64,000 nt of DNA from Helicobacter cetorum (GTDB taxonomy: Bacteria > Campylobacterota > Campylobacteria > Campylobacterales > UBA6016), in contig DZAX01000002.1 in NCBI GenBank assembly GCA_022729705.1, positions 53,277-117,276 on the forward strand, in the 5' to 3' direction. How positions within the stretch are numbered: the stretch's first letter is position 1; every line of letters begins with the position of its first letter. Made by a program: the position numbers and the translations under genes. The notes under the pieces are model-generated. The model had not been told where the DNA came from, ran no database searches, and was given only the letters and a program-made list of their open reading frames with translations. Positions 3,828-61,133 of the stretch are shown here, in pieces.

Positions 3828-3897
3828 CTCTATTCTCCCGCGAATGCGGGTAGCATAAGGAAGATACAGGGGCTTTGCTCGCGCATGTGCGTAACAT
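3828..3897 (-). repeat. R2 intergenic repeat, copy 1 (partly degenerate)
   Basis: The minus strand reads ATGTTACGC...CGAGCAAAGCCC...GCTACCCGCATTCGCGGGAGAAT. It starts about 19 nt after the stop of the WYL gene, in sense orientation. Confidence 0.7.
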
Positions 3898-3915
3898 CAG
3901 TGATTTAAAACGACT

Positions 3916-4791
3916 CTAAATTTGCAAATACTCTCTTAGCCCATTTTCTAGCTCTTGCTGTAGGCTTACCGGAGAGATTATTTTTAGATTTGGTATCCAG
4001 TATCTCGCCACGGCACAGACATGGTCCGGCATAGAGGTCGTAGACGAGACTATCAAGGCTCCGCTTGGGAGCTCTTCGACTATTTGCTGATTTGGAACAA
4101 GGGCGCGCCTACGAAAATATTGGGCGATAGTCGGAGAAACCTCCATCGTAATACAGATAGTCTCGCCGTACCATATACCATCATCCGACTCTATTTGGCG
4201 TAATACGCTTGTGTCGTGTTCAAAATTTTTGTCCGTTACGGCTACGTTTTTCATTTTTGCGAGAGAAAAGCTTTTTAATTTTGATTCGTCTGTGGCGGAT
4301 AGATACCAAACGCCCTTATTGTTTACGAGCTTATAACCACAAACGCTCCGTTTTTTGTCCGAATATACGAACTCTACTATATTTTTGTCGGCTATCGCTT
4401 TTTGCAGTTTTGAAAATAGCTCTTTTTTGTCGTCTACGTTTTCGTAGTGGTGACCTCTTACGGAGATTACGGCGTTATTTACCACATCTTCTAGTATTCT
4501 CTTTAAAAACCCATTTTCAAGCGATGGAAACAGCCCCTTAACGCCTGATATTGCCGCAAAGTTTTGTATATCTGACATTGTTAGTTTGCCTAGATGATAG
4601 GGGTCTAGCGAGTAGCTGCCGTCGTCTTTTTTGAGCGGTAGATAGTCAAATCTAACGTTTAGGTCTCTTTGGATTGTTCTTTTGTTTACATTGAACTCTT
4701 TGGCTAACTCGTCTATGCGTAGTTTTTCCCCAGAGTTTAGCTTCAGAAGTATTTGCGATAGCCTTCTGGCAAGTTTGTCTTTTTCAGTCAT
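3916..4791 (-). CDS. HTH-WYL-WCX transcriptional regulator (YafY/BrxR/CapW-like architecture)
   Basis: N-terminal HTH (IDELAKEFNVNKRTIQRDL) and a central WYL-type segment (IVEFVYSDKKRSVCGYKLVNNKGVWYLSA...SFSLAKMKNV). The length of 291 aa is typical of the family. Confidence 0.8.
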   Translation of the reverse strand: MTEKDKLARRLSQILLKLNSGEKLRIDELAKEFNVNKRTIQRDLNVRFDYLPLKKDDGSYSLDPYHLGKLTMSDIQNFAAISGVKGLFPSLENGFLKRILEDVVNNAVISVRGHHYENVDDKKELFSKLQKAIADKNIVEFVYSDKKRSVCGYKLVNNKGVWYLSATDESKLKSFSLAKMKNVAVTDKNFEHDTSVLRQIESDDGIWYGETICITMEVSPTIAQYFRRRALVPNQQIVEELPSGALIVSSTTSMPDHVCAVARYWIPNLKIISPVSLQQELENGLREYLQI

Positions 4792-4813
4792 TTTTTTCCT
4801 GTTTTAAAAAATT

Positions 4814-5302
4814 CTAGCCGTTAACTCTCAATATTCGGATTATACCCACACCCGCATTCTGCGCCGCCGGAGACGTGATGGCTTGCGGTGCTAGGCTATT
4901 TGCGGCGGCGGCGGTATGTGTTATCTTAAGAGCGTCGAGCGTATTCAGATCGTTAGAATCTATCTTAATAGCCCTACCGTCCAAACTACGCATAACCAGT
5001 CCACCCATAACGTCCGTATACGCCTCAACCCCCATCTGTAGTTTTGCGTCGTTTATCGCCCTTACCAGGCTCCCTTTTCTATCATAGTCTTCAAGCTCTA
5101 TAGCCCCTATAACTATATCGTTTATCGAAAAATCTATCGGGGTCGTACCGCCTTTCAGCGCTTCGTTTGGTTCGCTATATTTGTGCTCGACTACCCACGC
5201 CGCCCTTACTCCCGTTATATCGCTATAAGAGTTGATAAGGTTTGCCAACACCCCTATCCCCTCTCCGTTGTGATACCCCATTGGTACGGCGTGAAACTCC
5301 AT
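4814..5302 (-). CDS. hypothetical protein (probable C-terminal part of a frameshifted gene)
   Basis: 162-aa ORF immediately upstream of the WYL gene on the same strand. It overlaps the 87-aa ORF by 49 nt in another frame. No motif recognised. Confidence 0.45.
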   Translation of the reverse strand: MEFHAVPMGYHNGEGIGVLANLINSYSDITGVRAAWVVEHKYSEPNEALKGGTTPIDFSINDIVIGAIELEDYDRKGSLVRAINDAKLQMGVEAYTDVMGGLVMRSLDGRAIKIDSNDLNTLDALKITHTAAAANSLAPQAITSPAAQNAGVGIIRILRVNG

Positions 5303-5517
5303 AATTCATGCGTTCCGTCATAGTTTTTTAGGATAAGTCCCGCATCTCCAAACGGGTTTGCTTGGTCTATCGGAAGGAGTCTGCTCTGTTTGTAGCTTGT
5401 CGTTCCTAGTTTTGAGCCGTTAGATTGCCCGTCTTGCGCCGCTTGTATCGCTTGTATCGCTTGTATCGCTTTGGTCTTCATCGTATTTATGATTGTTACC
5501 TGCTCCTCTATAGCCAT
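5254..5517 (-). CDS. hypothetical protein (probable N-terminal part of a frameshifted gene)
   Basis: 87-aa ORF containing an (AIQ)3 repeat. Its reading frame runs into the downstream 162-aa ORF after a 1-nt shift near 5300. Confidence 0.4.
   Translation of the reverse strand: MAIEEQVTIINTMKTKAIQAIQAIQAAQDGQSNGSKLGTTSYKQSRLLPIDQANPFGDAGLILKNYDGTHELWSFTPYQWGITTERG
5442..5468. repeat. perfect 9-bp tandem repeat x3 (CTTGTATCG) encoding AIQAIQAIQ on the minus strand
   Basis: Read directly: cttgtatcg cttgtatcg cttgtatcg. Confidence 0.9.
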
Positions 5518-5767
5518 ATCCGCCGTTTGCAGTATCCCTTATAGCATCGTTTGCGTTTTTTATCGATTGATTTAGTGCGTTAGACGGGTTTTGAGGCTAT
5601 CCGCTATCGTTAGCCCTGATGAGTCGTCTGCCGAGGAGTTGATTAGAGTCTATTTACCGATTTATCTAGCTCTTGATTTGTTCTTAGGTTGTTTGTATAG
5701 GCGTTTTTTTGCCGTTATGTTTGTGTTTAGTTTGAAGCTCATAAGTCAGCCTTATCGTTTTAAAAAG

Positions 5768-5782
5768 TTTGTACTGTACAAA
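5768..5782. promoter_or_regulatory. 7-1-7 palindrome TTTGTAC-T-GTACAAA in the divergent control region (candidate operator)
   Basis: Perfect inverted repeat read directly. It lies between the minus-strand hypothetical/WYL operon and the plus-strand CsgG-like gene. Confidence 0.35.
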
Positions 5783-5834
5783 TTTAGCAACCGCTGTTCC
5801 TTTTTGCGTATAAAAACCAGAGCTTGGGCAAATA

Positions 5835-5894
5835 CGACACAACCTGTCGCAAAAAAATAAAAAACAAAATACAGGACGACACAACCTGTCGCAA
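5835..5894 (+). promoter_or_regulatory. two identical 18-bp direct repeats CGACACAACCTGTCGCAA, 42 bp apart, overlapping the promoter region of the CsgG-like gene
   Basis: Copies at 5835-5852 and 5877-5894. Each contains the inverted core GACA-N5-TGTC. A TATAAT lies at 5903-5908, just downstream of copy 2. Confidence 0.4.
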
Positions 5895-5933
5895 CCCACC
5901 TCTATAATACGTCTAAAACCAAAAGGAGATAAT

Positions 5934-6756
5934 ATGACTCTTAAAAAAATCAACGCTAGCGTTGGCGGCGGCTTTGTGTGCGGCTCTTGTGTTTTCTGGT
6001 TGCGCCTCATCTATGTAAACGGGCTCTACAAGGGCAAAGACCGAAGCGACCGGCTCCGCCGGAGGCTCTAACTCTCAAAACGCCAACTCAAAACTACAAA
6101 AATGCGAGCAGTCCATGGGAACTATCGCAATACAAGAAAATACAAATAGCGATTGGTACGGCGCTTTGATTAGAGAGTACAAGCTCACCTCTACGGTTCC
6201 GCTCTTAAAACTACTAGTGCAACAATCAAACTGCTTTGTCGTCGTAGAGAGAGGCAAGGGGCTAAGAAGTATAAATATGGAAAGAGAGCTTGCAAATAGC
6301 GGGGAGCTAAGAAGATCGTCAAATATCAGAAAAGGGCAAATGGTAGCCGCCGACTACACGATAGTTCCAAGTATAACCTTTAGCCAAAAAGGTACAAGCA
6401 AAAGCGGCGGAGTAGTGGGAGCCCTGCTAGGTCCCGTAGCCGGAGCCATAGCGGGCGGCATATCAAGCAGCGACGCTAGCGTACTACTAACCCTTGTAGA
6501 CAACAGATCAGGCGTTCAACTAGCCGCCGCCGAGGGAAGTGCTAGAAACTACGACTTAGCCCTTTTCGGCGGAGTAGGGCTAGCCGGACTAGGAGCGGGA
6601 GCGGGCGGATACTCAAATACGCCGGAGGGCAAGGTAATAGTAGCCGCTTTTACCGATTCGTTAAACAATTTGATAATATCTGTAAAAAATTATAAAACCC
6701 AAAACGTACGAGGCGGACTCGGTACAGGCGGGGGCTTGAGGGTGCAGGAGTATTGA
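5934..6756 (+). pseudogene. CsgG/HfaB-family lipoprotein gene, apparently disrupted (A7 frameshift plus in-frame TAA)
   Basis: ORF 6115-6756 has CsgG-like motifs (LLVQQSNCFVVVERGKGL..MERELA, then a Gly-rich segment and VLLTLVDNRSG). The same frame upstream encodes a lipobox signal KKSTLALAAALCAALVFSGC. That signal is cut by a TAA at 6016-6018, and the ATG at 5934 is one frame off across the A7 run at 5943-5949. Confidence 0.6.
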
Positions 6757-7027
6757 GGGGCGCATTATGTGTTTGATTAGTTTTTGTAGTATTTTTTAAT
6801 TAATATTTTACTTTTGATGTGGTATTGTAATTATACGGCAAGAGAAGTTTTTTAAGATTATTAAAATTTAAGGAAAGGGCGTTTTGAAGGAGCAACAAGC
6901 CGGATTTGCCGCCTCTCTTGAGCGTTTTGGGGATTTTATCGGCGGAGCTAAAGATTATAATGCCATCAGTTGCCTTGACGGATGGAGGCATTATAGTTGA
7001 ACATTAAATTATACAAAAGGAAATATT

Positions 7028-8152
7028 ATGAGTCAAGCACAGGATATGGAGCTATTTTCATCCGAAGAAAACGCCAAAAAAACTTTTGAAATTATCGAGG
7101 ACTTTGTTCAAAGCTATATTGAAAATAAAGAAAAAATGCCGCTAAAAGTGTGGTTAACGCAAAAGCTAACACAAAGCGGCGTTTGGGGCGACGAAGTTGA
7201 GAAAGTCGCAAATCTACTTATAGACCAAGCGCAAAAAAGAGCCGACATAAGAGAGGCTTACGACAAGCATATAAAAGAAGGCAAGAATGAAGAAACTTTT
7301 ATAGCAAGCTATGTAGAACAAAAGGCAAAAGAGCTTAACATATCAAACGAAGAAGCCGCAAAACAAATAGACGATTTGGCGGTTAGTTTTGATAAAAGAC
7401 TAGAAACGAAAAACGAAGATGGATGGAATGATTTTACGAGAATAGAAAATGCGGAATTAATCAGCGGCAAAGCCCATGCGATGGCGATGATTGGAATGAT
7501 AAGACAAGCAAAAGACGATGTAGTCAATAGAGTAAAAAATATGTTTAGCGGCAAAAAAAACCCAACTTTTCAAGAGTCGCTAGAAAAAATAATTATAAAT
7601 GCAAGTGCAACCGCAAGCGATAATGTCGGACTAAACGTGGCGATTGGCGCCGGCTTTATGACGGCGGCAAAAAGCGGATTTGTAAAATTTATGGATAGAC
7701 TAGCAGAGCACACAAGCGACATTTGGGGCGTGAAACACCTAACCGCCGCCGCAAGCGCGGTAACGCACGCCGGAGCGTTGGCTATAGATACCGCTAGAGC
7801 CGCGTATGATTTGGCGACAGGTAAAATGGATATAGAGCAAGCGATTAGTGCAATAAGAGCTAGCTCTACCACTCAAAACTTAGCCTCTTTGGGTGGCGGA
7901 GCCTTTGGAGCTATGGCTGGAACTATTTTGGGTCCGATTGGCGTTGTGGTAGGGGGCGCTATTGGTGCTTATATCGGCAAAAAAACGGCGGATTTACTAG
8001 AAGGCGGCATGGATAGGATTAAAAAAATAGTTGGCGAAGAAACCGTAGAAAGGGTTACAACCTTTGCCAAAGAAGCCATTAAGACCACTAAGAGTTTTAT
8101 TGGCGGCGTATTTAGCTGGGCAAAAAACAAAGTCTCTAAAGCTTTAGCGTAA
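7028..8152 (+). CDS. hypothetical helical protein with C-terminal glycine-zipper membrane segment
   Basis: 374-aa ORF. The C-terminal region reads LGGGAFGAMAGTILGPIGVVVGGAIGAYIGKK. It is the first gene of a co-directional 5-gene cluster. Confidence 0.7.
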   Translation: MSQAQDMELFSSEENAKKTFEIIEDFVQSYIENKEKMPLKVWLTQKLTQSGVWGDEVEKVANLLIDQAQKRADIREAYDKHIKEGKNEETFIASYVEQKAKELNISNEEAAKQIDDLAVSFDKRLETKNEDGWNDFTRIENAELISGKAHAMAMIGMIRQAKDDVVNRVKNMFSGKKNPTFQESLEKIIINASATASDNVGLNVAIGAGFMTAAKSGFVKFMDRLAEHTSDIWGVKHLTAAASAVTHAGALAIDTARAAYDLATGKMDIEQAISAIRASSTTQNLASLGGGAFGAMAGTILGPIGVVVGGAIGAYIGKKTADLLEGGMDRIKKIVGEETVERVTTFAKEAIKTTKSFIGGVFSWAKNKVSKALA

Positions 8153-8273
8153 GCAACCAACTTTTTGCTTTACTTTACATATTAATGGCGGGGGAAAATC
8201 CCGCCCATCTCAAGCTACAAAAAGCTTTACTTTTTGAGAATTTTATTAGATAGAAGGAAAAAAGGAATAATAA

Positions 8274-11186
8274 ATGGCGGTAATTAAATTTAAGTTGACA
8301 ATAGGCGGTAAAGCTATAGATACGCTAGACGAGCTTCGCGAGTGTTGTAAAAACACAGCAAACAAATCTAGCATAATGGCAATATTTAAAGACGAGAGAC
8401 TACAAAAGTGGCTTGAAGTGCGAGATCATGATGAGTTGTCTGCGCGTATTAAAAAACTCCACGGCGACGACAATAAAATATACGACTATATTAAAGAGTT
8501 TATTGGCGAGGCTAAAACGTACGACGGCGCAAAAAAAATCTTTAAAATATCGTACAATCCGTATGTGCTGGATAAAACTACGATATTTTTAAACGGCGAG
8601 CAATGCGATATTAGCATAGGGAGGTTGCAACACAACCTAGACCAAGTGATAAAAGACTTAGAGAGTGCTTGTAAGCAAAAAGAATACACAATAGAATTTA
8701 CCGGAAGAGAGATAGATTTTGACGACCTAGAATTAGCGTGCGAACACGCAAATAAAGACGAGGGTTATAAAATTACGCTAGAGCACAAGCCCTCTTTTGA
8801 AGCGTCCGGCGTTTTGAGTAATATTAAGCGTCTTGAATCGACTCTTAAAGATTTGCCAATTCCCGACGAAGAAAAAACATATGCGCAAGAAGCACTACAA
8901 AAGGCACTTCATAGCGAGTTTGAAATAGCTGTAGTAGCCACTATGAGTTCTGGCAAATCTACGCTTATAAACGCCATGCTGCAAGTTGAACTTTTGCCTG
9001 CGCGCAACGAAGCGACTACGGCAAAAATATTTAGAATAAAAGATGTTGACGGAAGAGATAGGTTTCGCGTAAAGTCTAACGGACAATGGATTGATTGCAC
9101 GCAAGAGACGCTAGAGGGCTTAAACGGCGGCGACTCCGACGGCTTTATCGAGATAGAGGGAGATATTCCGGCTATTAAATCCGATATTATGAGCCTAGTA
9201 TTGCTTGACACGCCCGGACCAAATAATTCGCGAAATGAACAACACAAAGAAAAAACCTATAGTATTATTAAGGACAATCAAAAACGCCCAGTTATACTTT
9301 ATGTGCTAAACGCGCAACAAATTGGTATTAACGACGACTCTTTTTTGATTAACAGTATAGCCGCGCAAATGCAAGACGGCGACAAGCAAAACAAAGAGCG
9401 TTTTTTGTTTGTTTTGAATAAAGCGGACGCTTTTGATACCGAAAAAGGCGAAAAGATACAAGACGCCATGGATAAATGCAAGGCGTATTTGGAAGAGAAA
9501 GGCATAAAAGAGCCTCTTATTTTTCCAATAAGCGCAGAGTTGGCTAGGGTTATTAGAAAACAAAAAAAAGGCGATAAGCTTACATCGAATGAAAGAAAAG
9601 CGCTATTTGATTGCGATAGATTTAACGAAGACGCCACATTGCATTTAGAAAAGTATGCCCCACTGGATAAAGCAAGCAAAAAGAAAGTTCAAAATACCCT
9701 TGAAAACGTAAGTGATGATGAAGAAAAAGCGCTAATTCATACCGGAATAGTTACCTTGGAAATAGCTATTAACGATTATGTTTCCAAATACGCCTCCGCT
9801 GTTAAAATTGGCGAGGCTTTGTCGGCTATTCAAAACATATCCACAAAACAAGAAGGTTTTGCGAAAATGATTGAAGAAGCCAAAGCCGCCGCCGCCGAAG
9901 CCAAACTAAAAGGCGATGAGGCTGAAGCCGCGATAGAGGAGGCTAAAAAAAAAGTTAAAGAAATAGAAGAGGAGATAGCTAAGAATGAAGCTGAAAAACA
10001 AGCACTAGAAGACAACAAAGACAGCACAAGCAAAGAAGTTCAAGAGAAGCGAGAGCTAATCGAGCGTAGAAAAAAAGAATTAGCCGCAATGGAAAAAGAG
10101 CGTTTGCAAAAACAGGATGAGCTTCGCAAAAACGAAAGCGTCATAAATGAAAAAGAGCAAAAGATAAAAGCTCTTCAAGAAAAGTTTCGCAAATTAAAAG
10201 AAGCCCTAAAATATATTAGTCTTAAAGATTTGAGCGAATTTAAAGAAATGGATGCAAAAGTGCGCTCTTGGGCAATCAACAAGACGGAAAAATTTATAGA
10301 TGCCAAACTACCAAAACACGAAGTTATGACGCTGCTCGGCGTATTGCAAAAGGATATTTCCAATTTTATTGTAGATATTAAGACCGATTTGCGAAAAGTG
10401 TATGCCGACAAGATTGATAGTAGAATAAAATCTATAGTAGCGATGATTGAGATTGAAATTAAAAGCTCCCTAGACGGCGGAATGCGAGATATAGCCTGCG
10501 CCAATTTAAAAGACATAGCGTCTAAACATGTATTTCAACAAGACGTGGTAGTGGGTAAAAAAACTGTAAAAATAGAAAGATCGATGTGGAATCCATTTCA
10601 CTGGCCTGGTATGATGTTTGGCAATGACGAAGAAGTGGTTGACGATGTTCAAAGACAATCGTTTATAAATATGCGTTCCGTTGAGCCTAAACTTTCCGAA
10701 CTAACGAAAACTTTGATAGACACTATTGAAAAAACAAAAAATGAGCTTGCAATGCAACTAGATAAAGTACAAGAAGGTATTCTTGATGAGTTAGAGACCA
10801 TTCAAAAAACAATGGAAGATGCAGAAAACGAGCGAGACCGAATATATATGGCAATGGTCGCTATGGAAGATCAAGCAAGGGGGCTTGACTTTAAAGAGAA
10901 AAAAACCAAGGATGAATCTTCCACGGAAGAAGAAGAGCTAAATAAAAAGCTTGCCGAGTCTGATAAGCTAGAAAAAAGCTTGGACGAAAAACAGGACAAG
11001 ATAAAAGAGTTTGACAACGCCGTAAACCAAAAGACCCAAGAGATTGAAAACGCCAAAAACAGAGCTGAACAAGAGGCTCGAAACTCTGAAATCGCACAAA
11101 AAGTTGTTGACGAATATGCCCAAAAAGAAAAAGCGTTTGCGCGTTTGCGTATTGAACTTGAAAAATGTTATGGAGAATTAAAATGA
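8274..11186 (+). CDS. dynamin-like large GTPase with long C-terminal coiled coil
   Basis: G1 VVATMSSGKSTLINAM, G3 LLDTPGPN, G4 VLNKAD. It has about 210 aa of unknown N-terminal region and about 450 aa of E/K-rich heptad-like sequence. Confidence 0.85.
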   Translation: MAVIKFKLTIGGKAIDTLDELRECCKNTANKSSIMAIFKDERLQKWLEVRDHDELSARIKKLHGDDNKIYDYIKEFIGEAKTYDGAKKIFKISYNPYVLDKTTIFLNGEQCDISIGRLQHNLDQVIKDLESACKQKEYTIEFTGREIDFDDLELACEHANKDEGYKITLEHKPSFEASGVLSNIKRLESTLKDLPIPDEEKTYAQEALQKALHSEFEIAVVATMSSGKSTLINAMLQVELLPARNEATTAKIFRIKDVDGRDRFRVKSNGQWIDCTQETLEGLNGGDSDGFIEIEGDIPAIKSDIMSLVLLDTPGPNNSRNEQHKEKTYSIIKDNQKRPVILYVLNAQQIGINDDSFLINSIAAQMQDGDKQNKERFLFVLNKADAFDTEKGEKIQDAMDKCKAYLEEKGIKEPLIFPISAELARVIRKQKKGDKLTSNERKALFDCDRFNEDATLHLEKYAPLDKASKKKVQNTLENVSDDEEKALIHTGIVTLEIAINDYVSKYASAVKIGEALSAIQNISTKQEGFAKMIEEAKAAAAEAKLKGDEAEAAIEEAKKKVKEIEEEIAKNEAEKQALEDNKDSTSKEVQEKRELIERRKKELAAMEKERLQKQDELRKNESVINEKEQKIKALQEKFRKLKEALKYISLKDLSEFKEMDAKVRSWAINKTEKFIDAKLPKHEVMTLLGVLQKDISNFIVDIKTDLRKVYADKIDSRIKSIVAMIEIEIKSSLDGGMRDIACANLKDIASKHVFQQDVVVGKKTVKIERSMWNPFHWPGMMFGNDEEVVDDVQRQSFINMRSVEPKLSELTKTLIDTIEKTKNELAMQLDKVQEGILDELETIQKTMEDAENERDRIYMAMVAMEDQARGLDFKEKKTKDESSTEEEELNKKLAESDKLEKSLDEKQDKIKEFDNAVNQKTQEIENAKNRAEQEARNSEIAQKVVDEYAQKEKAFARLRIELEKCYGELK

Positions 11187-13543: not shown

Positions 13544-13647
13544 CGAATTAAGAGATTTTTTGTAAAAATCTTAATGGTCTCATCCGCCCAAGCCTCTTTA
13601 ATATCTCCTCAACGGGGATATTTAGCTTGTCAAGTTTCACCACATTA

Positions 13648-13975
13648 CACCATCCCATTTAAAAGAGTAGCATAAAACGCATCAGGTGAAATCTTAAAAT
13701 TTTGCGGCTCTATTTCAAACCAACTTTTAACCGCTTCACACGGTGTTCTGACTTTTGACTCTTTTGTTAGTCCATCATGCCTTCTGTTTGTGTTGATGGT
13801 ACTATTTTTAATCGTTTTATTATACCATTAGTCTTTGGTGTTGCGGGTGCTGTTAGTCTATGCTCTGTATCATCTTTTTTGCATTCAATATCAAACTTAT
13901 GTTGGTCTTGAGCTTTTATCCTCTTGATACTCTCTGCTTTTCCACTTTGAGACTGTTTTGATATTTACACTATAT
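13648..13975 (-). pseudogene. IS481/IS3-type transposase C-terminal remnant (frameshifted)
   Basis: Minus-strand translation gives ...HKFDIECKKDDTEHRLTAPATPKTNGIIKRL... (compare the H-R-x-T-x-P-x-x-P-Q-T-N-G integrase-core tail). A shifted frame then gives ...TPCEAVKSWFEIEPQNF. Several stops interrupt it. Confidence 0.6.
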
Positions 13976-14040
13976 TTGGTCGCTAATTCAGTATTGGGTA
14001 AATTATACAAAAGTCTGATTTAACAAATGTTGAATTATCG

Positions 14041-14390
14041 ACACTATTTTGTCGGCGGGACGGCTTTGGTGCACTATTTAAATCATAGAGTTTCGTATGA
14101 TTTAGATTTTATTTCCATCGCAAAATTGAAGCCTAACACATTAAAGGCTTGGCGGTCTAATTAGAACGTTGCCGCTAAAAGCCATAGCCAAACCAAAGAT
14201 ACTGGCTTTTTTTAGAAGACGTAAAATTAGAGATTTATTTGACGTTTTTGCAATGCTTCAACAACAAAAAAATTGCAGTTGGTGATTTAGAAAGGCTCTA
14301 CGCAGTAGAGATAGGCAAAGGATGAACCTGGAATAAAAGAAAAAGTCTCTCGTCTAATAGATAAAATAGAAAACAGAGAAAACGGCTAAA
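14041..14390 (+). pseudogene. AbiEii/nucleotidyltransferase toxin-family remnant
   Basis: Fragments HYFVGGTALVHYLNHRVSYDLDFISI (the GGTAL..R.S.D.DF motif) and ...RRRKIRDLFDVFAML, separated by stops and deletions. Confidence 0.55.
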
Positions 14391-14412
14391 TTTTATTTGA
14401 AATTTAGCCCGA

Positions 14413-18179: not shown

Positions 18180-18227
18180 AGTTTTGTACTTTGATTTGCT
18201 TCAGGGTTATTTGACCCCAAAACAATT

Positions 18228-18323
18228 GTCGCCACTTCTCCGGCGAAGTCGGTAGCTTTAGAGGGTTGTAGGGACATTTGTCCCTGCCGCTAAAACGAAT
18301 GTATTCGTTTTAGCGCATAACAT
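18228..18323 (-). repeat. R2 intergenic repeat, copy 2
   Basis: The minus strand reads ATGTTATGCGCTAAAACGAATACATTCGTTTTAGCGGCAGGGACAAATGTCCCTACAACCCTCTAAAGCTACC.... It starts 8 nt after the hup stop, in sense orientation. Confidence 0.8.
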
Positions 18324-18330
18324 CATAACT

Positions 18331-23595: not shown

Positions 23596-23640
<45 letters not shown>

Positions 23641-23701
23641 AGCGATGTTCTGCGTTTAGTTTCTTCCAGTATCTTTATATTTACGCCTCTGCTCTGCTTT
23701 C

Positions 23702-34710: not shown

Positions 34711-35292
34711 ATTATATTTTTTATAATTTAAAATGTTACACGTGAAACAATTAAATCTTATACTATCATCTCGTCAAAACTACTTTCTTTTTCTCTCTCC
34801 AGAGGGGGCTTCTAGCCCCCTTTGTCTCCCCCGCCTCTTCTCAAACCCGCCAACTTTCCGCCCTCCCTTTTTTTAACTTTCGTCGTGTCCGATTGGGGGT
34901 ATCGGGGGTCACTCCCCGATATAGCAAAGCCGATTAGCTTTGCGTAGCAACGTCGCTTGCGACAACCTCGCACACTGTGCCCCGTGGCTGGGCGATACGT
35001 TAGCGGCAGAAAACCCTACTTGTACCATTCCGCCCTTTGGTCGTTTATGCCTAATTGCGGTCAAGTCCTCTCCCCCTATTTTCCATCTCGCCCAAAACGC
35101 CCCACTTTCACATCTTTATTTTCCGCCTCTCCTCCTCTCTTCATTTTTTACCTTGCCCCAAACCCAAAAAACTTATTAAAATTTGTCGTCTCTTTTACAG
35201 AGCGGGTTTTATCGGGGTTTATCGGACGCTTTACCGCGTCCTCTTAAGCTCCCTACGGAGCTTTAGAAAATTACTTTAAAAAAAGGATTACT
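34711..35292 (+). other. 580-bp non-coding, C-rich/G-poor region with at least 6 stem-loops (candidate origin, packaging signal or ncRNA)
   Basis: Hairpins at 34803-34821, 34901-34920, 34924-34943, 34952-34963, 35224-35241 and 35246-35263. Three overlapping stop-free frames here reflect composition, not coding. Confidence 0.6.
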
Positions 35293-37173: not shown

Positions 37174-37250
<77 letters not shown>

Positions 37251-39557: not shown

Positions 39558-39559
39558 AA

Positions 39560-39654
39560 ATGTTATGCGCTAATACGAGCAAAGCCCGTCTTAGCGGCAA
39601 AGGACATAAATGTCTCTTGTAACCCCCTAAAGCTCCCACTCGTGCAGGGGGAAT
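39560..39654 (+). repeat. R2 intergenic repeat, copy 3
   Basis: ATGTTATGCGCTAATACGAGCAAAGCCCGTCTTAGCGGCAAAGGACATAAATGTCTCTTGTAACCCCCTAAAGCTCCCACTCGTGCAGGGGGAAT. It starts 3 nt after the csp stop. Confidence 0.8.
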
Positions 39655-40119: not shown

Positions 40120-40284
40120 ATTCCTCTAACTGACGATTTAGAGCTTTTGGTTTTTTAATCTTATTGATTCTTAACCTCCAAGCTCTTGCAATAAAAAGGA
40201 ATATTAATTATGGGAAAAGGCGGTAAGCAGATTGTTGGAAAATGGGTTGACATTTCAGTCTTTGGATTGTGTTAAATTAAGGGG

Positions 40285-40361
40285 TGGTGGGTTCTAGAGG
40301 ACTCGAACCTCTGACCAGCCGGTTATGAGCCGGCTGCTCTAACCAACTGAGCTAAGAACCC
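40285..40361 (-). tRNA. tRNA with CAU anticodon (elongator Met or Ile2)
   Basis: GGGTTCTTAGCTCAGTTGGTTAGAGCAGCCGGCTCATAACCGGCTGGTCAGAGGTTCGAGTCCTCTAGAACCCACCA forms a cloverleaf. Met versus lysidine-Ile cannot be decided by eye. Confidence 0.9.
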
Positions 40362-42650: not shown

Positions 42651-42667
42651 AAATTGCTATAATCCTA

Positions 42668-42768
42668 ATGTTATACGCTTAAACGAGCAAAGCTCATTTA
42701 AGCGGCAAAGGACACGAGCGTCCCTTGCACCCCCCCCCTTAAAGCTACCCGCATAAATGCGGGAGAAT
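42668..42768 (+). repeat. R2 intergenic repeat, copy 4 (contains a C9 tract at 42730-42738)
   Basis: ATGTTATACGCTTAAACGAGCAAAGCTCATTTAAGCGGCAAAGGACACGAGCGTCCCTTGCACCCCCCCCCTTAAAGCTACCCGCATAAATGCGGGAGAAT. It starts 18 nt after the lpxB stop. Confidence 0.8.
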
Positions 42769-42831
42769 GTTAGGATTTACACACTTTTTGATAAAGTGTC
42801 CAATATCTGTTAAAATTATAAAAAAAATTAT

Positions 42832-42910
42832 CTGCCGCCTACGGCGGCTAGCTTTAGCGGCTTAGCGCTTAGCGTAGCAAGGACGGGCTTTGCCCGTCCT
42901 TGCGTAATAT
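42832..42910 (-). repeat. R2 intergenic repeat, copy 5 (inverted relative to copy 4)
   Basis: The minus strand reads ATATTACGCAAGGACGGGCAAAGCCCGTCCTTGCTACGCTAAGCGCTAAGCCGCTAAAGCTAGCCGCCGTAGGCGGCAG. It lies about 25 nt upstream of the greA ATG. Confidence 0.7.
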
Positions 42911-42934
42911 GAAATAAAAAAGGATTTTCTTAAA

Positions 42935-48991: not shown

Positions 48992-48992
48992 A

Positions 48993-49487: not shown

Positions 49488-49507
49488 AGGGCGCCCATAG
49501 CACGAAT

Positions 49508-49530
49508 CCTCATTTTGGGCTTTGCCCAAA
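49508..49530 (+). repeat. R1 hairpin module, degenerate copy
   Basis: CCTCATTTTGGGCTTTGCCCAAA; 7-bp stem. Confidence 0.6.
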
Positions 49531-49575
49531 TTAAACATGAATTTCTAAGAGCGGCAAGCCGCGAGAGCCGTCTGC

Positions 49576-49619
49576 TGAAGACCTCATTTTGGGCTTTGCC
49601 CAAAATGTGAGAATCAATC
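49576..49619 (+). repeat. R1 repeat copy (hairpin CATTTTGGGC-TTT-GCCCAAAATG)
   Basis: TGAAGACCTCATTTTGGGCTTTGCCCAAAATGTGAGAATCAATC matches 59925-59968 with 2 mismatches. Confidence 0.8.
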
Positions 49620-50522
49620 AAGTAGCTCGTCAAGTATCGAAAACTTATTTGCACACATGAGGTGAATTCTTGGATTTATCGCTTTTACTTTTGTGTAAAT
49701 ATCCTTTGAAATCTCCATTCCGACTTTATACTCCTCTTGCGGCGAAATTTTTGAAGCTTTAAACATAGCGTCGATAAAGCTCTCCGGCACAAATATACCT
49801 GGAACGTGTGCATACAAAAATTGCGCTGTTTTGAGGCTTGTTATTGGAAATACGCCAAATATTAGTTTTGCCTCTCTTCTTTCATCGTCAAACTCCATTC
49901 TTGTTTCATCAAAAATATTGAGTAGCTTTTGGGCTATCGCTTCGTCGAATACGGGCTGAGTGATTACTCCAAGACTATAGTTTTCTATTTTTTTATGTAG
50001 CTTTTTTTTGATGTTTGAAAAGTTTTTTGCATATGAATTTGTGACGCTAAAGGCGTACATTGGCGCGGGTTTTGGCGTTATGGCTTTGCCTGCAAAGTCT
50101 ACGCCCTCGTTAAAAAGCCTAATAGCTCTAAGAAGTTGCGAGCTATCGCACTCAAATACACCTTTTACATTTGGTTGGTCTGAAAGACGCGCAGGGTCTC
50201 CCGTAAGCGCCAAAACGCCCCTAACGCCAAAATCGTTTAACCCCAATAGCTCGGACTGCATAGCTAGCTTGTTTTTATCTCTCATCGACACCGTGCATAT
50301 TACCGGCTTGTTTAGTTCATTTTGCGCTTTTACCGAGGCTAGAACGCTTGAATATTTTAGTTTTGCCAAAGGATTATCGGTTATTGTTAGACCATCTATT
50401 TGCGACAACGCTTTTACCGCTTTTACCGCATCTAATGTTTTTGAAAAATCTGTTGATTTTGGCGGCGTAATTTCAAGTGTTAAAAATGAACTTTCAAGTT
50501 TTTCTACCAATGTTTCGGTCAT
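49614..50522 (-). CDS. methylenetetrahydrofolate reductase-like protein
   Basis: LEITPPKS..., TITDNPLA, ALTGDP blocks typical of the MTHFR family. The start at 50522 (MTETLV) is preferred. Confidence 0.7.
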   Translation of the reverse strand: MTETLVEKLESSFLTLEITPPKSTDFSKTLDAVKAVKALSQIDGLTITDNPLAKLKYSSVLASVKAQNELNKPVICTVSMRDKNKLAMQSELLGLNDFGVRGVLALTGDPARLSDQPNVKGVFECDSSQLLRAIRLFNEGVDFAGKAITPKPAPMYAFSVTNSYAKNFSNIKKKLHKKIENYSLGVITQPVFDEAIAQKLLNIFDETRMEFDDERREAKLIFGVFPITSLKTAQFLYAHVPGIFVPESFIDAMFKASKISPQEEYKVGMEISKDIYTKVKAINPRIHLMCANKFSILDELLD

Positions 50523-53233: not shown

Positions 53234-53272
53234 ATTGAACCCTCTGATTAGTTTTCACATTTTGGGCAAAGA
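53234..53272 (-). repeat. R1 repeat copy, inverted orientation (left arm of the inverted pair flanking the R-M segment)
   Basis: ATTGAACCCTCTGATTAGTTTTCACATTTTGGGCAAAGA matches the reverse complement of 59942-59980 with about 4 mismatches. Confidence 0.75.
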
Positions 53273-53375
53273 GCATATTAAGCCTAAAAATAATTGTTCA
53301 TTACAAAGATTTTTAGAAAAAATTAGAGAGTGTCGATAGGGCAAATAAATAATATGGCGACACTTTAGCGTTAGA

Positions 53376-54179: not shown

Positions 54180-54207
54180 TAGAAATGAAAATGAACAAGA
54201 AAATAAG

Positions 54208-56037: not shown

Positions 56038-56044
56038 GGAAAAT

Positions 56045-56611: not shown

Positions 56612-57380
56612 AGAACTTTTGAAAAAGTTATGTAAAAACTTTACAATAGAAGAAACTAGAAACAAGTTTAAATATAAAATTACCACCCCATTTACACTTC
56701 CATGTGGTGAGCAAATAAGCTTTATAGCACAAATTATAAGCGATAAAGAAATTTTACTTGATGATAAAGCATTTATTTTTAGATATTTTGATCTTAATTT
56801 TTTTGAGCCAAAAAATAGTGCTATAGAGTCAATGGATGAAATTTGTAAAAACTTTGGAATTGCTAGTGGTGACAGTTTTCAGAAAATTATTACTATTGAT
56901 GATCGTTTTTGTGAGTACGATTTTTATGATTACATAAACGCACTTATACGACTATCGGATATTATTTTTTATAAACCAGAACAAAGAGAAAAAAATGATT
57001 TTATTGAGCAGTTGATTAATTATGTTAGGGATGGTTTTGATGTTAAAACAAAATTCTTTTCCTCTGGCGTTAAGCCTTATGATAGTAAGGATGATTTTAA
57101 GGTAGATATAGCTTTATCAACTGATGATAAAAAATGGGTTCTGATAAACGGTATATATAACCAAAATAGAATGTCAGAAATAAATCTTTCTTTGATGTAT
57201 TACAAATTTGAGCATAAATTAGAAATCGAAAGCATTTTGGTTTTTGATAACATGGATGCTTATGTGAAAAAGGGCGGCAAACTAAATAGGCTTTTAAAGT
57301 ATATAGATACTCCTGTTGCCACGTTTGATGATGATGGAAAAGCTAAAATTAAAGAAACATTAGAAAAAAGATTATATTAG
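56595..57380 (+). CDS. hypothetical protein (possibly DUF1828/DUF1829-like) inserted between mod and res
   Basis: 261-aa ORF that overlaps the previous gene by 17 nt and ends 1 nt before the res ATG. The N-terminus YKITTPFTLPCGEQISF...LLDD resembles DUF1828 from memory only. Confidence 0.6.
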   Translation: MKSQIEELLKKLCKNFTIEETRNKFKYKITTPFTLPCGEQISFIAQIISDKEILLDDKAFIFRYFDLNFFEPKNSAIESMDEICKNFGIASGDSFQKIITIDDRFCEYDFYDYINALIRLSDIIFYKPEQREKNDFIEQLINYVRDGFDVKTKFFSSGVKPYDSKDDFKVDIALSTDDKKWVLINGIYNQNRMSEINLSLMYYKFEHKLEIESILVFDNMDAYVKKGGKLNRLLKYIDTPVATFDDDGKAKIKETLEKRLY

Positions 57381-59927
57381 ATGACCCTCCGCTACTCCTC
57401 AAACCTCCCACACCAACAAAACGCCATAAACGCCGTTTTGTCGCTATTTGACGCTCAAATAGCACAAGAGGATAGTTTTGCCATCTTTGACGATGAGGCT
57501 GTTGTTGATAATAGGCTTACGATAGACGAAGAGCAGATACTATCAAATCTGCAAGCGGTGCAGAGCGCAAACAAGCTGCCGCCGAGCGAGAAGCTAGAGA
57601 GCCTTGATTTTAGCCTCGAAATGGAGACGGGGACTGGTAAGACATACGTGTATTTGCGCACGGCTTTGGAGCTTTATATCAGATACGGATGGAAAAAATT
57701 TGTCGTCGTAGTTCCGTCAATAGCTATCAAAGAAGGGGCTCTTTCAAGCTTAGAGGGGATGAGCGCTCACTTTTTGCAGGAGCTAAAAATACGCTACAAC
57801 TACTTTGAGTATAGCTCCGAGCGATTAACGGAACTACGGCACTTCATAAGAGATGACGAGCTTCAAATCATGGTAACGACTCTTGACGGCTTCAAGCGGC
57901 AAAATACAGTAATGCAGAGAGACGATTTGGAAAACTTCTCAGGCTCCCCGCTAGAGTCTCTTGCGCGCACTAGACCTATCGTGATACTGGATGAGCCGCA
58001 AAATATGGAGTCTGACTTGTCAAAGGAGGCTTTGGGGGCTTTAAATCCGCTTTTTGTCCTTAGATATTCGGCGACGCACAAAAATCTATACAACCTCATA
58101 TATAGCCTATCGCCAAAAGAGGCGTTAGAAGCCGGGCTAGTCAAAAAAGTATTCGTAGTGGGTATATCAGAGCAAAAAGTAGCTAGTGAAGCATACATAA
58201 GCGTAGCGGCAATAGAGCGTGACAAAAACAAAAAACTCTTTGCGTCGCTGGAGCTAATCGCAAATCAAAAAAACAGCTTTGTCAAAAAATTGTTTAATGT
58301 CAAAGTAGGCGACACTCTTGCGGACAGGGCAAAAAATAGCGTTTATGATGGTTTTGCGGTTAGCGAGATTAGCTATGCCGATGGATATATATCTTTTGAA
58401 AACGGCGTAAAATTAGTGCTTCATGAGACTAGTGGGCAGGTAAAAAAAGAGATACAAAAAGAGCAGATAAGAGAAGCGATAAAAAAACATTTTGAGACTA
58501 CGAAGGCGTTAAAGCCAAAAGGGATAAAGCCGCTTTGTCTTTTTTTTGTCGATAGGGTGGCAAACTTTTTGGCTGTTGAAGATGGTTGGATGGAAGCCTT
58601 TTTTTGCGAAGCGTTTGACGAGATGAAAGATAGTTTTGCGGAGTTTGCAAATATGGAGGCAAAAAGCGCTTATAAATACTATTTTGCAAAGCGTTCAAAA
58701 GGGTATGTGGACGAGCTAAAGAATAACGACGCCGATAGGAAGGCGGGGAAAGAGGCGTATGATCTGATACTAAAAGGCAAAGAACAGCTGATGAAACCAG
58801 ATGAACCTGTAAGCTTTATATTTAGTCATTCGGCGCTCAAAGAGGGGTGGGACAACCCAAACGTCTTTACCATAGCCACGCTCAACGAGACCAATAGCGA
58901 TTTAAAAAGAAGGCAAATAATCGGGCGCGGGCTCAGGCTATGTGTGGATGCAGAGGGGAAGAGGGTATATGATATAAATATCAATAGACTTAGCGTCGTG
59001 GCAAATGAGAGTTTTCAAAGTTTTACGGAGAGCCTGCAAAAAGAGTATGCACAGACGGGACAAACGGGCGGCGATGTCGGCGACGGTGGTCTTAAAAAGC
59101 AGAAAGCGACGCTAAAAAAAGATATTCTACTATCGGACGAATTTAAAAAACTATGGTCGTTGATAAGTCGAAAAACTGAGTATCATGTAAAACTGGAAAC
59201 CGAAAAATTTGTTACAGACGTTATCGAAAAGCTAAATGAGATTGAGGTTTGCAGACTTAAAATCAGAATAGAAGAAGGTGGTGTGGGCGAGGGAGTTGAT
59301 GAGGAGAGACAAAAGGTTATAAACATAATACCGCGCATTTCAGATATAGTAGGCGAGTTAACCACAAATACCGGACTTACGAGGGCTACTATAATTTCTA
59401 TTTTGGATAAAATAGATTTGGAGAGATTTGTTGATGATTTAGACAGTTTTGCAAAAAAGGCTAGCCTTATCATCAACGATGAGAAAGCCATGTGTCTAGC
59501 AAGCGGAATATCATATAAACAGCTTGATGAATGGTGGTTGCAAGAAAATATCTTTGATGATGAATTTGAAGATTTTGAGTTGGTTGAGATGAAAAAGAGT
59601 TTATATGACTATATCAAATGCGACTCAAGCACTGAGAAACTATTTGCAAAGTGTGCCGACAATAGATTTGGGCTTACTATTAAACTACCAAAACGATTTT
59701 ATATCCATACGCCGCTTGGCAAATATAGTCCGGATTGGGCGATAGTCGCAAACGATAAATCAAAAACGTGTTTTGTAGTAGAGACAAAAGCCGCTGAGCT
59801 AGATAGTGAATTAAGGGGTGTTGAGGGCGCCAAAATAAAATGCGGAAAGAAGCATTTTGGAGTGCTTGACGTTTTATATAGGCAAAATAAAAAATGCGAA
59901 GATATACTAACAGAGCCCTCACGCTGA
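57381..59927 (+). CDS. res: type III restriction endonuclease (Res) helicase-nuclease subunit
   Basis: Helicase motif I METGTGKTYVY, motif II ILDEPQNM, and a C-terminal PD-(D/E)xK-like SPDWAI...VVETKA. Confidence 0.9.
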   Translation: MTLRYSSNLPHQQNAINAVLSLFDAQIAQEDSFAIFDDEAVVDNRLTIDEEQILSNLQAVQSANKLPPSEKLESLDFSLEMETGTGKTYVYLRTALELYIRYGWKKFVVVVPSIAIKEGALSSLEGMSAHFLQELKIRYNYFEYSSERLTELRHFIRDDELQIMVTTLDGFKRQNTVMQRDDLENFSGSPLESLARTRPIVILDEPQNMESDLSKEALGALNPLFVLRYSATHKNLYNLIYSLSPKEALEAGLVKKVFVVGISEQKVASEAYISVAAIERDKNKKLFASLELIANQKNSFVKKLFNVKVGDTLADRAKNSVYDGFAVSEISYADGYISFENGVKLVLHETSGQVKKEIQKEQIREAIKKHFETTKALKPKGIKPLCLFFVDRVANFLAVEDGWMEAFFCEAFDEMKDSFAEFANMEAKSAYKYYFAKRSKGYVDELKNNDADRKAGKEAYDLILKGKEQLMKPDEPVSFIFSHSALKEGWDNPNVFTIATLNETNSDLKRRQIIGRGLRLCVDAEGKRVYDININRLSVVANESFQSFTESLQKEYAQTGQTGGDVGDGGLKKQKATLKKDILLSDEFKKLWSLISRKTEYHVKLETEKFVTDVIEKLNEIEVCRLKIRIEEGGVGEGVDEERQKVINIIPRISDIVGELTTNTGLTRATIISILDKIDLERFVDDLDSFAKKASLIINDEKAMCLASGISYKQLDEWWLQENIFDDEFEDFELVEMKKSLYDYIKCDSSTEKLFAKCADNRFGLTIKLPKRFYIHTPLGKYSPDWAIVANDKSKTCFVVETKAAELDSELRGVEGAKIKCGKKHFGVLDVLYRQNKKCEDILTEPSR

Positions 59928-59980
59928 AGACCTCATTTTGGGCTTTGCCAAAAATGTGAGAATTAATCAGAGGGTTCAAT
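59925..59980 (+). repeat. R1 repeat copy (right arm of the inverted pair)
   Basis: TGAAGACCTCATTTTGGGCTTTGCCAAAAATGTGAGAATTAATCAGAGGGTTCAAT. It overlaps the res stop codon. Confidence 0.8.
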
Positions 59981-60022
59981 CAAAACCGCATAGGTTCGTT
60001 TGTTGGATGGGGCAATAAAAGA

Positions 60023-61048
60023 ATGATAAAGAAAAAAGTAGTAGTAGCGATGAGCGGCGGTATAGACAGCTCAATGACTGCAAAAAGAGTTGTAGATGCA
60101 GGGTATGAGGCGTATGGCGTGTATCTGAAGCTTCACAATAATGAAGAGTTGCATGCGATAAATATAGCAAATATCGACAAAGTAGCAAATTTTCTTGGTA
60201 TAAAATATGAGGTTGTTTCGCTAGAAGAGAGCTTTCAAGAATTTGTCATAAACCCGTTTGTAGACTATTACAAAAAGGGTCTGACTCCAAATCCATGCAC
60301 TTTTTGCAATAGAGAGATAAAGTTTGGAGCCTTAGCTGAGTTTGCGGCGCAAAAAGGGTTTGACTATCTAGCTACCGGACACTACGTTAGATGTGACGGC
60401 GAGTTTTTTTATGAGGCGGTTGATAAATCTAAAGACCAAAGTTATTTTTTGTTTAACGTCAAAAAAGAGATTTTGAGCCACCTTATGTTTCCTTTGGGCG
60501 ACTCTATCAAGAGCACTCTTAAAGAAGAGGCTATACAGATACCCGTATTTGCATCGCTTGCAAAACAAAAAGAGAGTAGCGAAATATGTTTTGTAGAGGG
60601 TAGTTATATAGAGGCTCTAAGAGAGCTTGGCGCTTTGGCGGACAATGCGGGCAAGATAGTGGACGAAGAGGGCGTCGTTATTGGAACCCACAAAGGTTTT
60701 ATGCACTATACGATAGGTCAACGAAAAGGGTTTGACGCTCCGCTTTCGCATATACCGCTCTATGTAAAAAGCATAGATGCAGACAAAAACATTGTGAGCG
60801 TATGCGCAAAAGACGGCGTATTTGAGAACTCATTGTTGGTAGGCTCTCTAAATATGTTTGATGCGGCGACTACGTTTGAGTGCGAAGTAAAGGTGCGATA
60901 TAGAAGCGAAAAATGTCCGGCAACGGTAGAAATAAAAGATGGCGCGGCAAAAATAGAGCTAAAGGCACCTCAATTTGCAATAGCAAAAGGTCAAGCAGCT
61001 GTTTTTTATGACGGAGAAAAGGTTTTAGGGGGCGGGTATATAGCGTAG
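60023..61048 (+). CDS. mnmA: tRNA 2-thiouridine(34) synthase
   Basis: PP-loop VVVAMSGGIDSS and conserved CTFCN/ATGHY blocks. Confidence 0.93.
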   Translation: MIKKKVVVAMSGGIDSSMTAKRVVDAGYEAYGVYLKLHNNEELHAINIANIDKVANFLGIKYEVVSLEESFQEFVINPFVDYYKKGLTPNPCTFCNREIKFGALAEFAAQKGFDYLATGHYVRCDGEFFYEAVDKSKDQSYFLFNVKKEILSHLMFPLGDSIKSTLKEEAIQIPVFASLAKQKESSEICFVEGSYIEALRELGALADNAGKIVDEEGVVIGTHKGFMHYTIGQRKGFDAPLSHIPLYVKSIDADKNIVSVCAKDGVFENSLLVGSLNMFDAATTFECEVKVRYRSEKCPATVEIKDGAAKIELKAPQFAIAKGQAAVFYDGEKVLGGGYIA

Positions 61049-61094
61049 TGTCGTTAGAGGTTTTATAAAGAGGCGGAAAAACACGCTAAAATCT

Positions 61095-61133
61095 CTCGTA
61101 AATACGAGTTTTGCTCGTATTTACGCATAACAC
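61095..61133 (-). repeat. R2 repeat, hairpin-1 module only (copy 6); probable bidirectional terminator
   Basis: The minus strand reads GTGTTATGCGTAAATACGAGCAAAACTCGTATTTACG, with a perfect 12-bp stem. It starts 2 nt after the stop of the small secreted-protein gene. Confidence 0.7.

Follow-up and report, generated by a model that had tools for sequence, protein, structure and literature searches.

The subject of this report is R2, a dispersed intergenic repeat in a 64,000-nucleotide stretch of a genome assigned to Helicobacter cetorum (assembly GCA_022729705.1, contig DZAX01000002.1, positions 53,277 to 117,276; in the following, the window). R2 is a real, unnamed and previously undescribed, lineage-restricted family of structured intergenic repeats of about 100 bases, which occurs in a few uncultured Campylobacterota. 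The original prediction had described six copies of a three-hairpin element, five of which would be transcribed in sense as the 3' untranslated region (3'-UTR) of the gene upstream. Our analysis shows that selection acts on the single-stranded fold of the other strand, as RNA or as single-stranded DNA. We refer to this complement of the strand first described (the R2 strand) as R2', and to hairpins 1–3 read on it as helices 1'–3'. Copies in the window are numbered c1 to c7, and loci or contigs fetched from other assemblies and from metagenomes carry L-numbers. The data for the host comprise 64 kb of one genome, and overall about 20 independent copies of R2 were available.

Covariation, folding strand and extent of the family

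Fourteen full copies were arranged in a structure-based alignment of 36 base pairs, made by hand and checked against the sequences, with gaps padded with N; since some of the 14 rows are near-identical orthologues, they represent about ten independent copies. On R2', 95.9% of the cells of this alignment were standard pairs, and 13 pairs had changed on both sides. The covariation score was 0.342, compared to 0.150 ± 0.014 for shuffled alignments, and none of 500 shuffles reached the observed value. Slid controls of the alignment were paired in 34–52% of the cells. Helix 3 occurs in at least eight different sequences, among them CCCGCA/TGCGGG, CAAAAAC/GTTTTTG, CTCGTATC/GATACGAG and GCCGCC/GGCGGC. 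The stems covary while the joiners stay nearly invariant, as had been proposed for stems that differ between copies with pairing retained. The shared single-stranded blocks that had been listed are likewise present as short, near-invariant joiners, with the exception of GGCAAAGG, which is the 5' arm of hairpin 2.

The two strands are not equivalent. When the same pairs were evaluated in a mirrored alignment, 83.3% of the cells were paired on the R2 strand versus 95.9% on R2'; the corresponding values were 86.9% versus 97.1% for helix 1 and 89.3% versus 98.3% for helix 2. The mismatches on the R2 strand are overwhelmingly A·C or C·A, i.e., G·U on the complement. Within helices 1–3, 34 G·U pairs are valid only on R2' and 4 only on the R2 strand, and with a candidate outer helix added, these counts are 61 and 5, respectively. 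Hairpin 1 was said to be a 12-bp stem in every intact copy; in c3 and c4, it contains A·C, C·A and T·C mismatches, which on R2' turn into G·U pairs or disappear, and c1 has lost half of the stem. In 16 of 17 copies, R2' had the lower predicted minimum free energy (with a difference of up to 14 kcal/mol), the R2 strand still reaching –22 to –44 kcal/mol. Because copies occur in both genomic orientations, a replication-strand mutation bias cannot account for this asymmetry.

Read on the R2 strand, every locus has the order TGATGTTATGCGC – hairpin 1 – GCGGCA... – hairpin 2 – C-run – CTAAAGCTW – hairpin 3 – AGAAT. On R2', the order is 5'-(A/C)UUCU, helix 3', a UAGCUUU bulge, AGGGG, helix 2' abutting helix 1', and a 10-nt tail, CAUAACAUCA-3'. 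The unit, with its three helices, measures 91–103 nt. Its 5' block RTGTTAYRCG occurs six times in the window, compared to 0.66 occurrences expected, and none of 100 shuffles reached six.

Eleven loci outside the window, from metagenome-assembled genomes (MAGs) of Campylobacterota and from metagenomes, share this architecture. They were collected by pattern scans of species-representative genomes and of metagenomes, followed by covariance-model searches for extra copies. The first scan yielded four true loci (one in Sulfuricurvum sp. MLSB, one in a Campylobacteraceae MAG and two in a Helicobacteraceae MAG), and the second yielded seven further loci, all seven of them true; the covariance model added a second copy in locus L012. 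All 70 pattern matches in viral contigs were attributed to chance, the best of them scoring 21 bits with the covariance model and lying in coding sequence. The GreA protein encoded in the window is only 59% identical to that of a named Sulfuricurvum, and the host is hence not a Sulfuricurvum in the strict sense but an uncultured relative. A scan of the window at the Rfam gathering thresholds returned three tRNAs only and no match to R2, and E-value scans of the c3 and c4/c5 regions gave at best 10–20 bits, compared to thresholds of 50–134. Literature searches turned up no description of R2 or of a comparable repeat in sulfur-oxidizing Campylobacterota, in agreement with the original statement that the element belongs to no named family.

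Gain and loss of copies and the case for a possible mobile element

Comparison with related assemblies shows that R2 copies come and go between closely related strains and species. The spacer between hup and a cytochrome c gene contains c2 in unchanged form in the window and in five other assemblies. In strain L029, the flanks of this site are 99.4% and 100% identical to those of the window, but GCTTAAAAGCGGTGAT alone is present where the window has 105 nt including c2. Seven contigs of a sister species (L109–L115; 88–95% nucleotide identity) have exactly this empty sequence, and more distant relatives (L117 and L118) have a 27-nt spacer at this position. Given the same empty sequence in the sister species and the short spacer in the more distant relatives, the empty state of the c2 site is ancestral.

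A second case is the 243-bp module composed of c4, a spacer and c5, which is missing from contigs L038 and L119, whose GreA proteins are 89% and 93% identical to that of the window. Their lpxB–greA spacers of 47 and 45 nt, respectively, contain a TGYTATAAT –10 element followed by AAAACATCA and a Shine-Dalgarno sequence. The window keeps this ancestral –10 element, now parted from greA by the module. Relative to L038 and L119, the module was inserted as a whole, whereas c2 was gained as a single unit, and most copies are single. About 70 kb fetched from relatives contained no copy of R2, compared to seven copies in the 64 kb of the window. Several metagenome contigs break at R2: L002 and L003 end at 42656, L026–L028 end at 18276–18277, L020 begins at 42833, and in L023, c2 is covered by an N gap. 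Copies of R2 thus lead to fragmentation of short-read assemblies.

The window and strain GCA_974338125.1 (L001) differ at 23 positions in 12.4 kb; 20 of these fall within 42657–42915, and 16 within c4. In this strain, which is otherwise 99.8% identical, the middle of helix 1 of c4 shows a compensated replacement, and the C9 tract of c4 has become GC5. The C9 tract itself (42726–42734; G9 on R2') had been noted correctly, and its length polymorphism is of the kind that causes phase variation in Campylobacterota. General hypermutation of R2 was rejected, as c2 and c3 are invariant among strains with 0.3–1% divergence; only the c4/c5 region is an outlier, and one event of conversion or replacement accounts better for the difference in c4. 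The orthologous pairs L005/L016, L010/L014 and L011/L013, at 98–99.7% identity, are too close to inform on purifying selection. In the first of these pairs (L005:5205–5301 and L016:5040–5136), the loop of helix 2 is exactly inverted (GGAC-TAAA-GTCC versus GGAC-TTTA-GTCC), the rest being 98.5% identical, a hallmark of DNA-level template switching via hairpins.

The junctions have a common feature. TGAT precedes GTTAT in 12 of 16 copies, and both ancestral empty sites have TGAT exactly at the junction (indicated by a slash): TTTGAT/GTTTT in the greA leader, on the minus strand, and GGTGAT/TTGTTTTG after hup. Both targets resemble the 5' block of R2 itself, and the right flanks of 12 copies resemble this block beyond shuffled flanks (P = 0.0025, with a weak null model). 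Neither the c2 nor the c4/c5 junctions show a clean target duplication or direct repeats.

The insertion polymorphism points to a mobile element, a possibility that the original prediction had left out of account. We tentatively favor, at slightly less than even odds, the reading of R2 as a dispersed repeat of the REP/REPIN or PATE type that is non-autonomous and restricted to its lineage, measures about 95–105 nt, forms single units or inverted doublets, and is selected as the single-stranded R2' fold and passively co-transcribed. Such a repeat would spread through an intermediate of single-stranded DNA, on which an enzyme that reads structure, for example an HUH-type transposase, would act, its gene being located elsewhere in the genome; TnpA of IS608 recognizes hairpin structure rather than sequence (PMC3201880). 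Insertion would occur next to TGAT (ATCA on R2') without target duplication. Once inserted, R2 would be co-transcribed with the neighboring genes, and the transcript is predicted to carry the R2' fold in 10 of the 14 readable loci, as a 5' leader, an intercistronic or a 3' segment. The stable R2' helices may incidentally affect mRNA decay or processing.

A number of observations weigh against this reading. No transposase or recombinase partner was found among the open reading frames (ORFs) of the window or the gene calls of the loci. The junctions are not resolvable to the nucleotide: at the c2 site, 16 ancestral nucleotides were replaced, and three alternative alignments each need 6–7 changes in the adjacent 15–30 nt. 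Since these flank changes are needed under any alignment, import of a diverged allele by recombination is as likely at c2 as recent transposition. TGAT makes the R2 strand the "top" strand in terms of IS200/IS605 elements, whereas the pairing evidence picks the opposite strand, and an IS91-like arrangement with the target on the 3' side is the one candidate that would reconcile TGAT with the folding strand. Moreover, the three helices with near-invariant joiners, the 9% of G·U pairs and the presence of G·U at fixed positions recall a functional RNA more than the ends of a transposon. Finally, copy number elsewhere is low, at about one per locus of 8–10 kb, each locus having been fetched for containing a copy.

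Copies in the window, gene context and alternative readings

The six copies listed originally are all present in the window, and a repeat search revealed a seventh, c7, which had been missed (Table 1). The window contains two inverted doublets (c7/c1 and c4/c5) and three single copies (c2, c3 and c6).

Table 1. R2 copies and associated features in the window. Covariance-model E-values are rough.
Feature	Position	Strand	Basis	Score (bits)	E-value
c7	3534–3665	R2' strand –	covariance model	24.9	0.0014
c7/c1 spacer, AT-rich	3666–3827	no strand	pairwise alignment, promoter scan		
c1, degraded	3828–3899	R2' strand +	covariance model	17.8	0.066
c2, intact	18226–18325	R2' strand +	covariance model	60.9	
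c3	39558–39654	R2' strand –	covariance model	63.8	
TGCTATAAT, ancestral greA –10 element	42655–42663	+	comparison with L038 and L119		
c4, top-scoring copy	42666–42768	R2' strand –	covariance model	89.4	
c4/c5 spacer	42769–42827	+	promoter scan		
c5, divergent, without helix 2	42828–42914	R2' strand +	covariance model, filters off	19.3	2.7e-5
c6, decayed full-length copy	61040–61135	R2' strand +	covariance model	23.5	0.003

Copy c7 has an additional hairpin of about 35 nt between helix 2 and the TAGCT block, and its tail stops 3 nt short of the first ATG (3530) of a gene identified by Pfam as coding for a hybrid histidine kinase. Its partner c1 retains the 5' block, helix 3 and GAGAAT, but lacks the 3' arm of helix 1 and the entire helix 2; 16 nt separate its tail from the stop codon of a convergent WYL-domain gene. 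The spacers of the two doublets share TAAAATTATAA plus other stretches, as indicated by pairwise alignment. On the R2' strand, c2 lies 55 nt downstream of the cytochrome c gene, with 5 nt between its tail and the stop codon of hup, a convergent gene. Copy c3, in which helix 3 is weak and helices 1 and 2 are intact, is located between csp and an 87-aa gene, both on the plus strand, and its R2' strand is antisense to both. A perfect 8-bp inverted repeat, AATCCTAA/TTAGGATT, at 42660–42667 and 42771–42778 brackets c4; by pairing, it would turn the entire element into a four-way junction, and no counterpart was seen at the other copies. Copy c5 precedes the start codon of greA by 20 nt, in sense (GreA being identified by Pfam). 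Copy c6, taken originally for a solitary hairpin 1, indeed has only helix 1 and the tail intact (61095–61135) but is a decayed full-length copy, which lies 46 nt downstream of mnmA, with its tail 2 nt from the stop codon of a convergent 52-aa gene. A stretch at 34998–35018 had been regarded as related to R2; the covariance model, run with filters off, finds nothing there.

R2' is located in sense 10–33 nt upstream of a start codon at seven sites or orthologue groups: c5' (greA), c7' (hybrid histidine kinase), L005/L016 (phosphoglucosamine-mutase-like), L008, L010/L014 (between pepA and ychF), L011/L013 (between genes of a HAD hydrolase and an epimerase) and L017 (SLT gene). At c2' (cytochrome c) and c6' (mnmA), a co-directional gene precedes it, and it is antisense to all neighboring genes at c1', c3', c4' and L018. 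The tail end always adjoins a gene boundary; of the two ends of R2', it is the one closer to a gene boundary in 13 of 14 loci, a significant asymmetry (binomial P about 0.001). The c7/c1 spacer contains a promoter-like site on the minus strand (TTGTAA-18-TATAAT, 3742 to 3713) aimed at c7' and the kinase gene. A strong promoter-like site with an upstream TG (TTGATA-17-TAAAAT, 42788–42816, 10 of 12 matches) ends 11 nt before c5'. Transcription of greA from this site would set in a few nucleotides ahead of c5', and the greA mRNA therefore probably begins with the predicted R2' fold. A –10 element at a fixed distance upstream of R2' was not found across 15 copies.

The main rival reading, conceivable albeit rather doubtful, sees R2' first of all as a structured RNA that acts in cis, as a leader or between cistrons. 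It would be transcribed in sense together with the gene that follows, a host factor would bind or cleave its three helices and conserved single-stranded blocks, and its spread at the DNA level would be secondary. Possible roles comprise protection from decay by RNase J/Y, provision of an RNase III site, and masking of a Shine-Dalgarno-like G-run by the UUCUC strand. Besides the seven sites upstream of start codons and the promoter-like site before c5', this reading draws on the selection for pairing on one strand with 9% G·U, pair 86:96 being G·U in 9 of 14 copies, and on the candidate outer helix (UUCU/AGGG), which pairs only as RNA (84% on R2' compared to 47% on the R2 strand). R2' must be transcribed at four co-directional gene pairs, where the distance from R2' to the ATG is too short for a promoter, and the helix 3' loops on R2' are rich in GAA/GAAA. 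However, the downstream genes have no functional theme, and single copies between co-directional genes are in sense in four cases and antisense in one, which is not a significant bias. The copies c1', c3', c4' and L018, being antisense to every neighbor, are also difficult to reconcile with a leader function, and the absence of R2' from the orthologous leaders of close relatives, where a short, ordinary greA leader occurs, indicates that it is dispensable. A riboswitch or a leader specific for a certain metabolite appears unlikely, given that the downstream genes (greA, histidine kinase, ychF, epimerase, phosphoglucosamine-mutase-like, SLT) are unrelated. The reading of R2 as a mobile element and that of R2' as a cis-acting RNA are not mutually exclusive.

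The two may be combined in a scheme which we consider a long shot, namely, that R2' is a portable, self-folding RNA leader. A mobile insertion near the start or stop of a gene would install a three-helix RNA, and the hypervariable stems (with helix 1 swapped between near-identical strains) and the length of the G-tract (G9 versus G5) would tune the neighbor. R2 would then be a transposable cis-regulatory RNA subject to phase or allelic variation, spread by an undescribed single-strand recombinase that recognizes TGAT sites like the element's own end.

A function of R2 as a sense 3'-UTR element along the lines originally proposed, be it by stabilizing the 3' end of the mRNA, by translation-coupled effects near the stop codon or as the source of a 3'-derived small RNA, is improbable. 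Its positional basis stands: five copies in the window begin 0–17 nt after the stop codons of the WYL gene, hup, csp, lpxB and the 52-aa gene in that orientation. REPs of E. coli within about 15 nt of a stop codon have been reported to affect translation, and the R2 strand still folds well, as its free energies (see above) indicate. At copy L012a, a canonical intrinsic terminator in the same orientation (L012:254–300; AGAGGGC-TTTATC-GCCCTCT, then GTTTTTTT, with a run of seven T) follows R2, which makes transcription of this strand probable at that copy; behind the second L012 copy, the hairpin recurs without the T-run. What does not hold is the inference drawn from the position, since the strand that folds is antisense to these genes. 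Pairing on the R2 strand is consistently poorer (83.3 versus 95.9% of cells), with 34 A·C mismatches versus 4 G·U pairs in favor of the complement. In other genomes the R2 strand is antisense to the adjacent downstream gene, R2' lying just upstream of start codons or between co-directional genes, and c5 and c7 are behind no gene in that orientation.

Termination had been considered as a further role and is unlikely as far as intrinsic terminators are concerned. A GC-rich hairpin directly followed by a U-tract is not found in R2. On the R2 strand no T-run follows helix 3, as originally stated, except at c5, where a T8 run flagged as terminator-like starts 6 nt after hairpin 3; on R2' none follows helix 1', the tail being CATAACATCA.

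That the R2' copies are independent genes of trans-acting small RNAs with promoters of their own is highly improbable: promoter-like sites occur just upstream of c5' and some way from c7', and the conserved single-stranded blocks could serve as seed regions, but no promoter is found at a conserved distance across 15 copies, no terminator follows helix 1', and several copies are squeezed between co-directional genes.

Some other candidates were rejected. A small ORF starting from the conserved ATG is not maintained, as reading frames and stops vary through 1-nt length differences in hairpin 1 (inspected by eye in c2–c4). A hammerhead or other ribozyme, suggested by the motif CUGAUG, finds no support in Rfam, and an outward promoter in the tail (CATAAC/TATAAC) would have a poor –10 element without the final T. 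The flanks beyond GAGAAT often fold, but too heterogeneously for a fourth conserved hairpin.

The window contains further repeats and traces of mobile elements. A second family of hairpin repeats, GACCTCATTTTGGGCTTTGCCCAAAATGTGAGAATYAATCA(GAGGGTTCAAT), occupies intergenic spacers at 49500–49546, 49574–49620 and 59923–59969 on the plus strand and at 53234–53282 on the minus strand; its hairpin has the same top (GGGC-TTT-GCCC) as R2' helix 1, and this family, too, ends in AATCA. A 50-nt direct repeat of the 3' end of tRNA-Met (23596–23645 and 37174–37223) bounds an integrated phage-like element of about 13.6 kb with holin, Collar and HTH genes. In GCA_974338125.1, an integrase gene abuts the other tRNA-Met (40285–40361), and homology with the window stops at 40258. 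The long non-coding stretch at 13550–14400 contains, as judged by eye, apparent remnants of an rve-type (IS481/IS3-like) transposase in several frames, unrelated to R2. At 62409–62489, a 38-nt inverted repeat with a 5-nt gap is 79% complementary, and contig L032 of a sister assembly ends about 15 nt beyond it.

Comparison with known systems

Dispersed hairpin repeats are well characterized mainly in Proteobacteria, such as E. coli and Pseudomonas (REP/RAYT). With three covarying helices, invariant joiners, preference for one strand and insertion polymorphism, R2 represents a tractable case for asking whether such repeats are relics of selfish single-strand transposons, host RNA elements, or both. 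On the practical side, R2 copies break metagenome assemblies, and the strand test reverses a 3'-UTR annotation that looked plausible.

R2 shares with the attC sites of integrons the position just 3' of ORFs, a folded active strand antisense to the ORF, a structure that is kept while the sequence varies, and a GTT-containing core (GTTATGC in R2, GTTRRRY in attC). Identity with attC was rejected: there is one GTTRRRY-like core, without an RYYYAAC partner closing the element except by chance at c4, and neither L boxes nor the pattern of extrahelical bases are present. No integrase gene or attI site lies beside any copy, and the neighbors are housekeeping genes, not cassettes. A classical MITE was likewise rejected, as the ends of the unit are unlike (TGATGTTATGCGC versus GAGAAT) and direct repeats are lacking at the c2 and c4/c5 junctions.

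The BOX (boxA-B-C), ERIC and Correia/NEMIS elements, modular repeats of Gram-positive bacteria and Neisseria, are similar to R2 in being intergenic repeats of about 100–150 nt with predicted folds; they are transcribed and able to alter expression of neighboring genes, as may also hold for R2. However, there is no sequence similarity, and those elements have conserved stems or terminal inverted repeats (with TA duplication in the case of Correia), whereas the stems of R2 covary and neither terminal inverted repeats nor target duplication occur.

The ends of IS200/IS605 elements (IS608, ISDra2) and PATEs resemble R2 in the lack of terminal inverted repeats and of target duplication, in subterminal hairpins formed on one strand, and apparently in a fixed tetranucleotide at the junction, TGAT or TTGAT in R2 compared to TTGAT in ISDra2. 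The foot of helix 1' is followed by 10 nt ending in ATCA, which corresponds to the spacing between IP_R and TCAA at the right end of IS608 (PMC3201880). A structure-reading enzyme would moreover tolerate covariation of the stems. The differences are that the strand of R2 with TGAT 5' of the element is not the best-pairing strand, as opposed to the active strand of these insertion sequences (IS), that the left-end spacing is 0–6 nt rather than 19 nt, and that R2 has a third, central helix. A related full-length IS with tnpA or tnpB did not turn up in the window or the loci, although no dedicated search was made.

REP, BIME and REPIN sequences, associated with RAYT (TnpA-REP), are extragenic, multi-copy and built from hairpins, occur singly or as inverted doublets with a spacer, show strand-specific imperfect pairing and presence/absence polymorphism between strains, and are co-transcribed with their neighbors, all of which also applies to R2, where co-transcription is predicted. 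As outlined in PMC3733652, and as generally understood, a REP is a single imperfect palindrome of 20–40 nt with a terminal tetranucleotide tag, GTAG or CGTC. The R2 unit, in contrast, comprises about 100 nt with three helices and long invariant joiners, its stems diverge strongly within one genome, and pairing between the two units of a doublet is not possible. Neither tag was found at the end of R2, GTAG occurring only at the base of helix 2' in c2 and L018 (2 of 14 copies), and no RAYT (Y1 HUH) gene was present among the ORFs of the window or the gene calls of the loci examined. Membership of R2 in the REP/RAYT, PATE, attC, MITE or terminator classes or in any Rfam family is thus not established, and several of their defining features are refuted. 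As an analogy, however, the label of a REP/BIME-like dispersed intergenic repeat given in the original prediction is fair, and in the window this repeat includes two inverted doublets.

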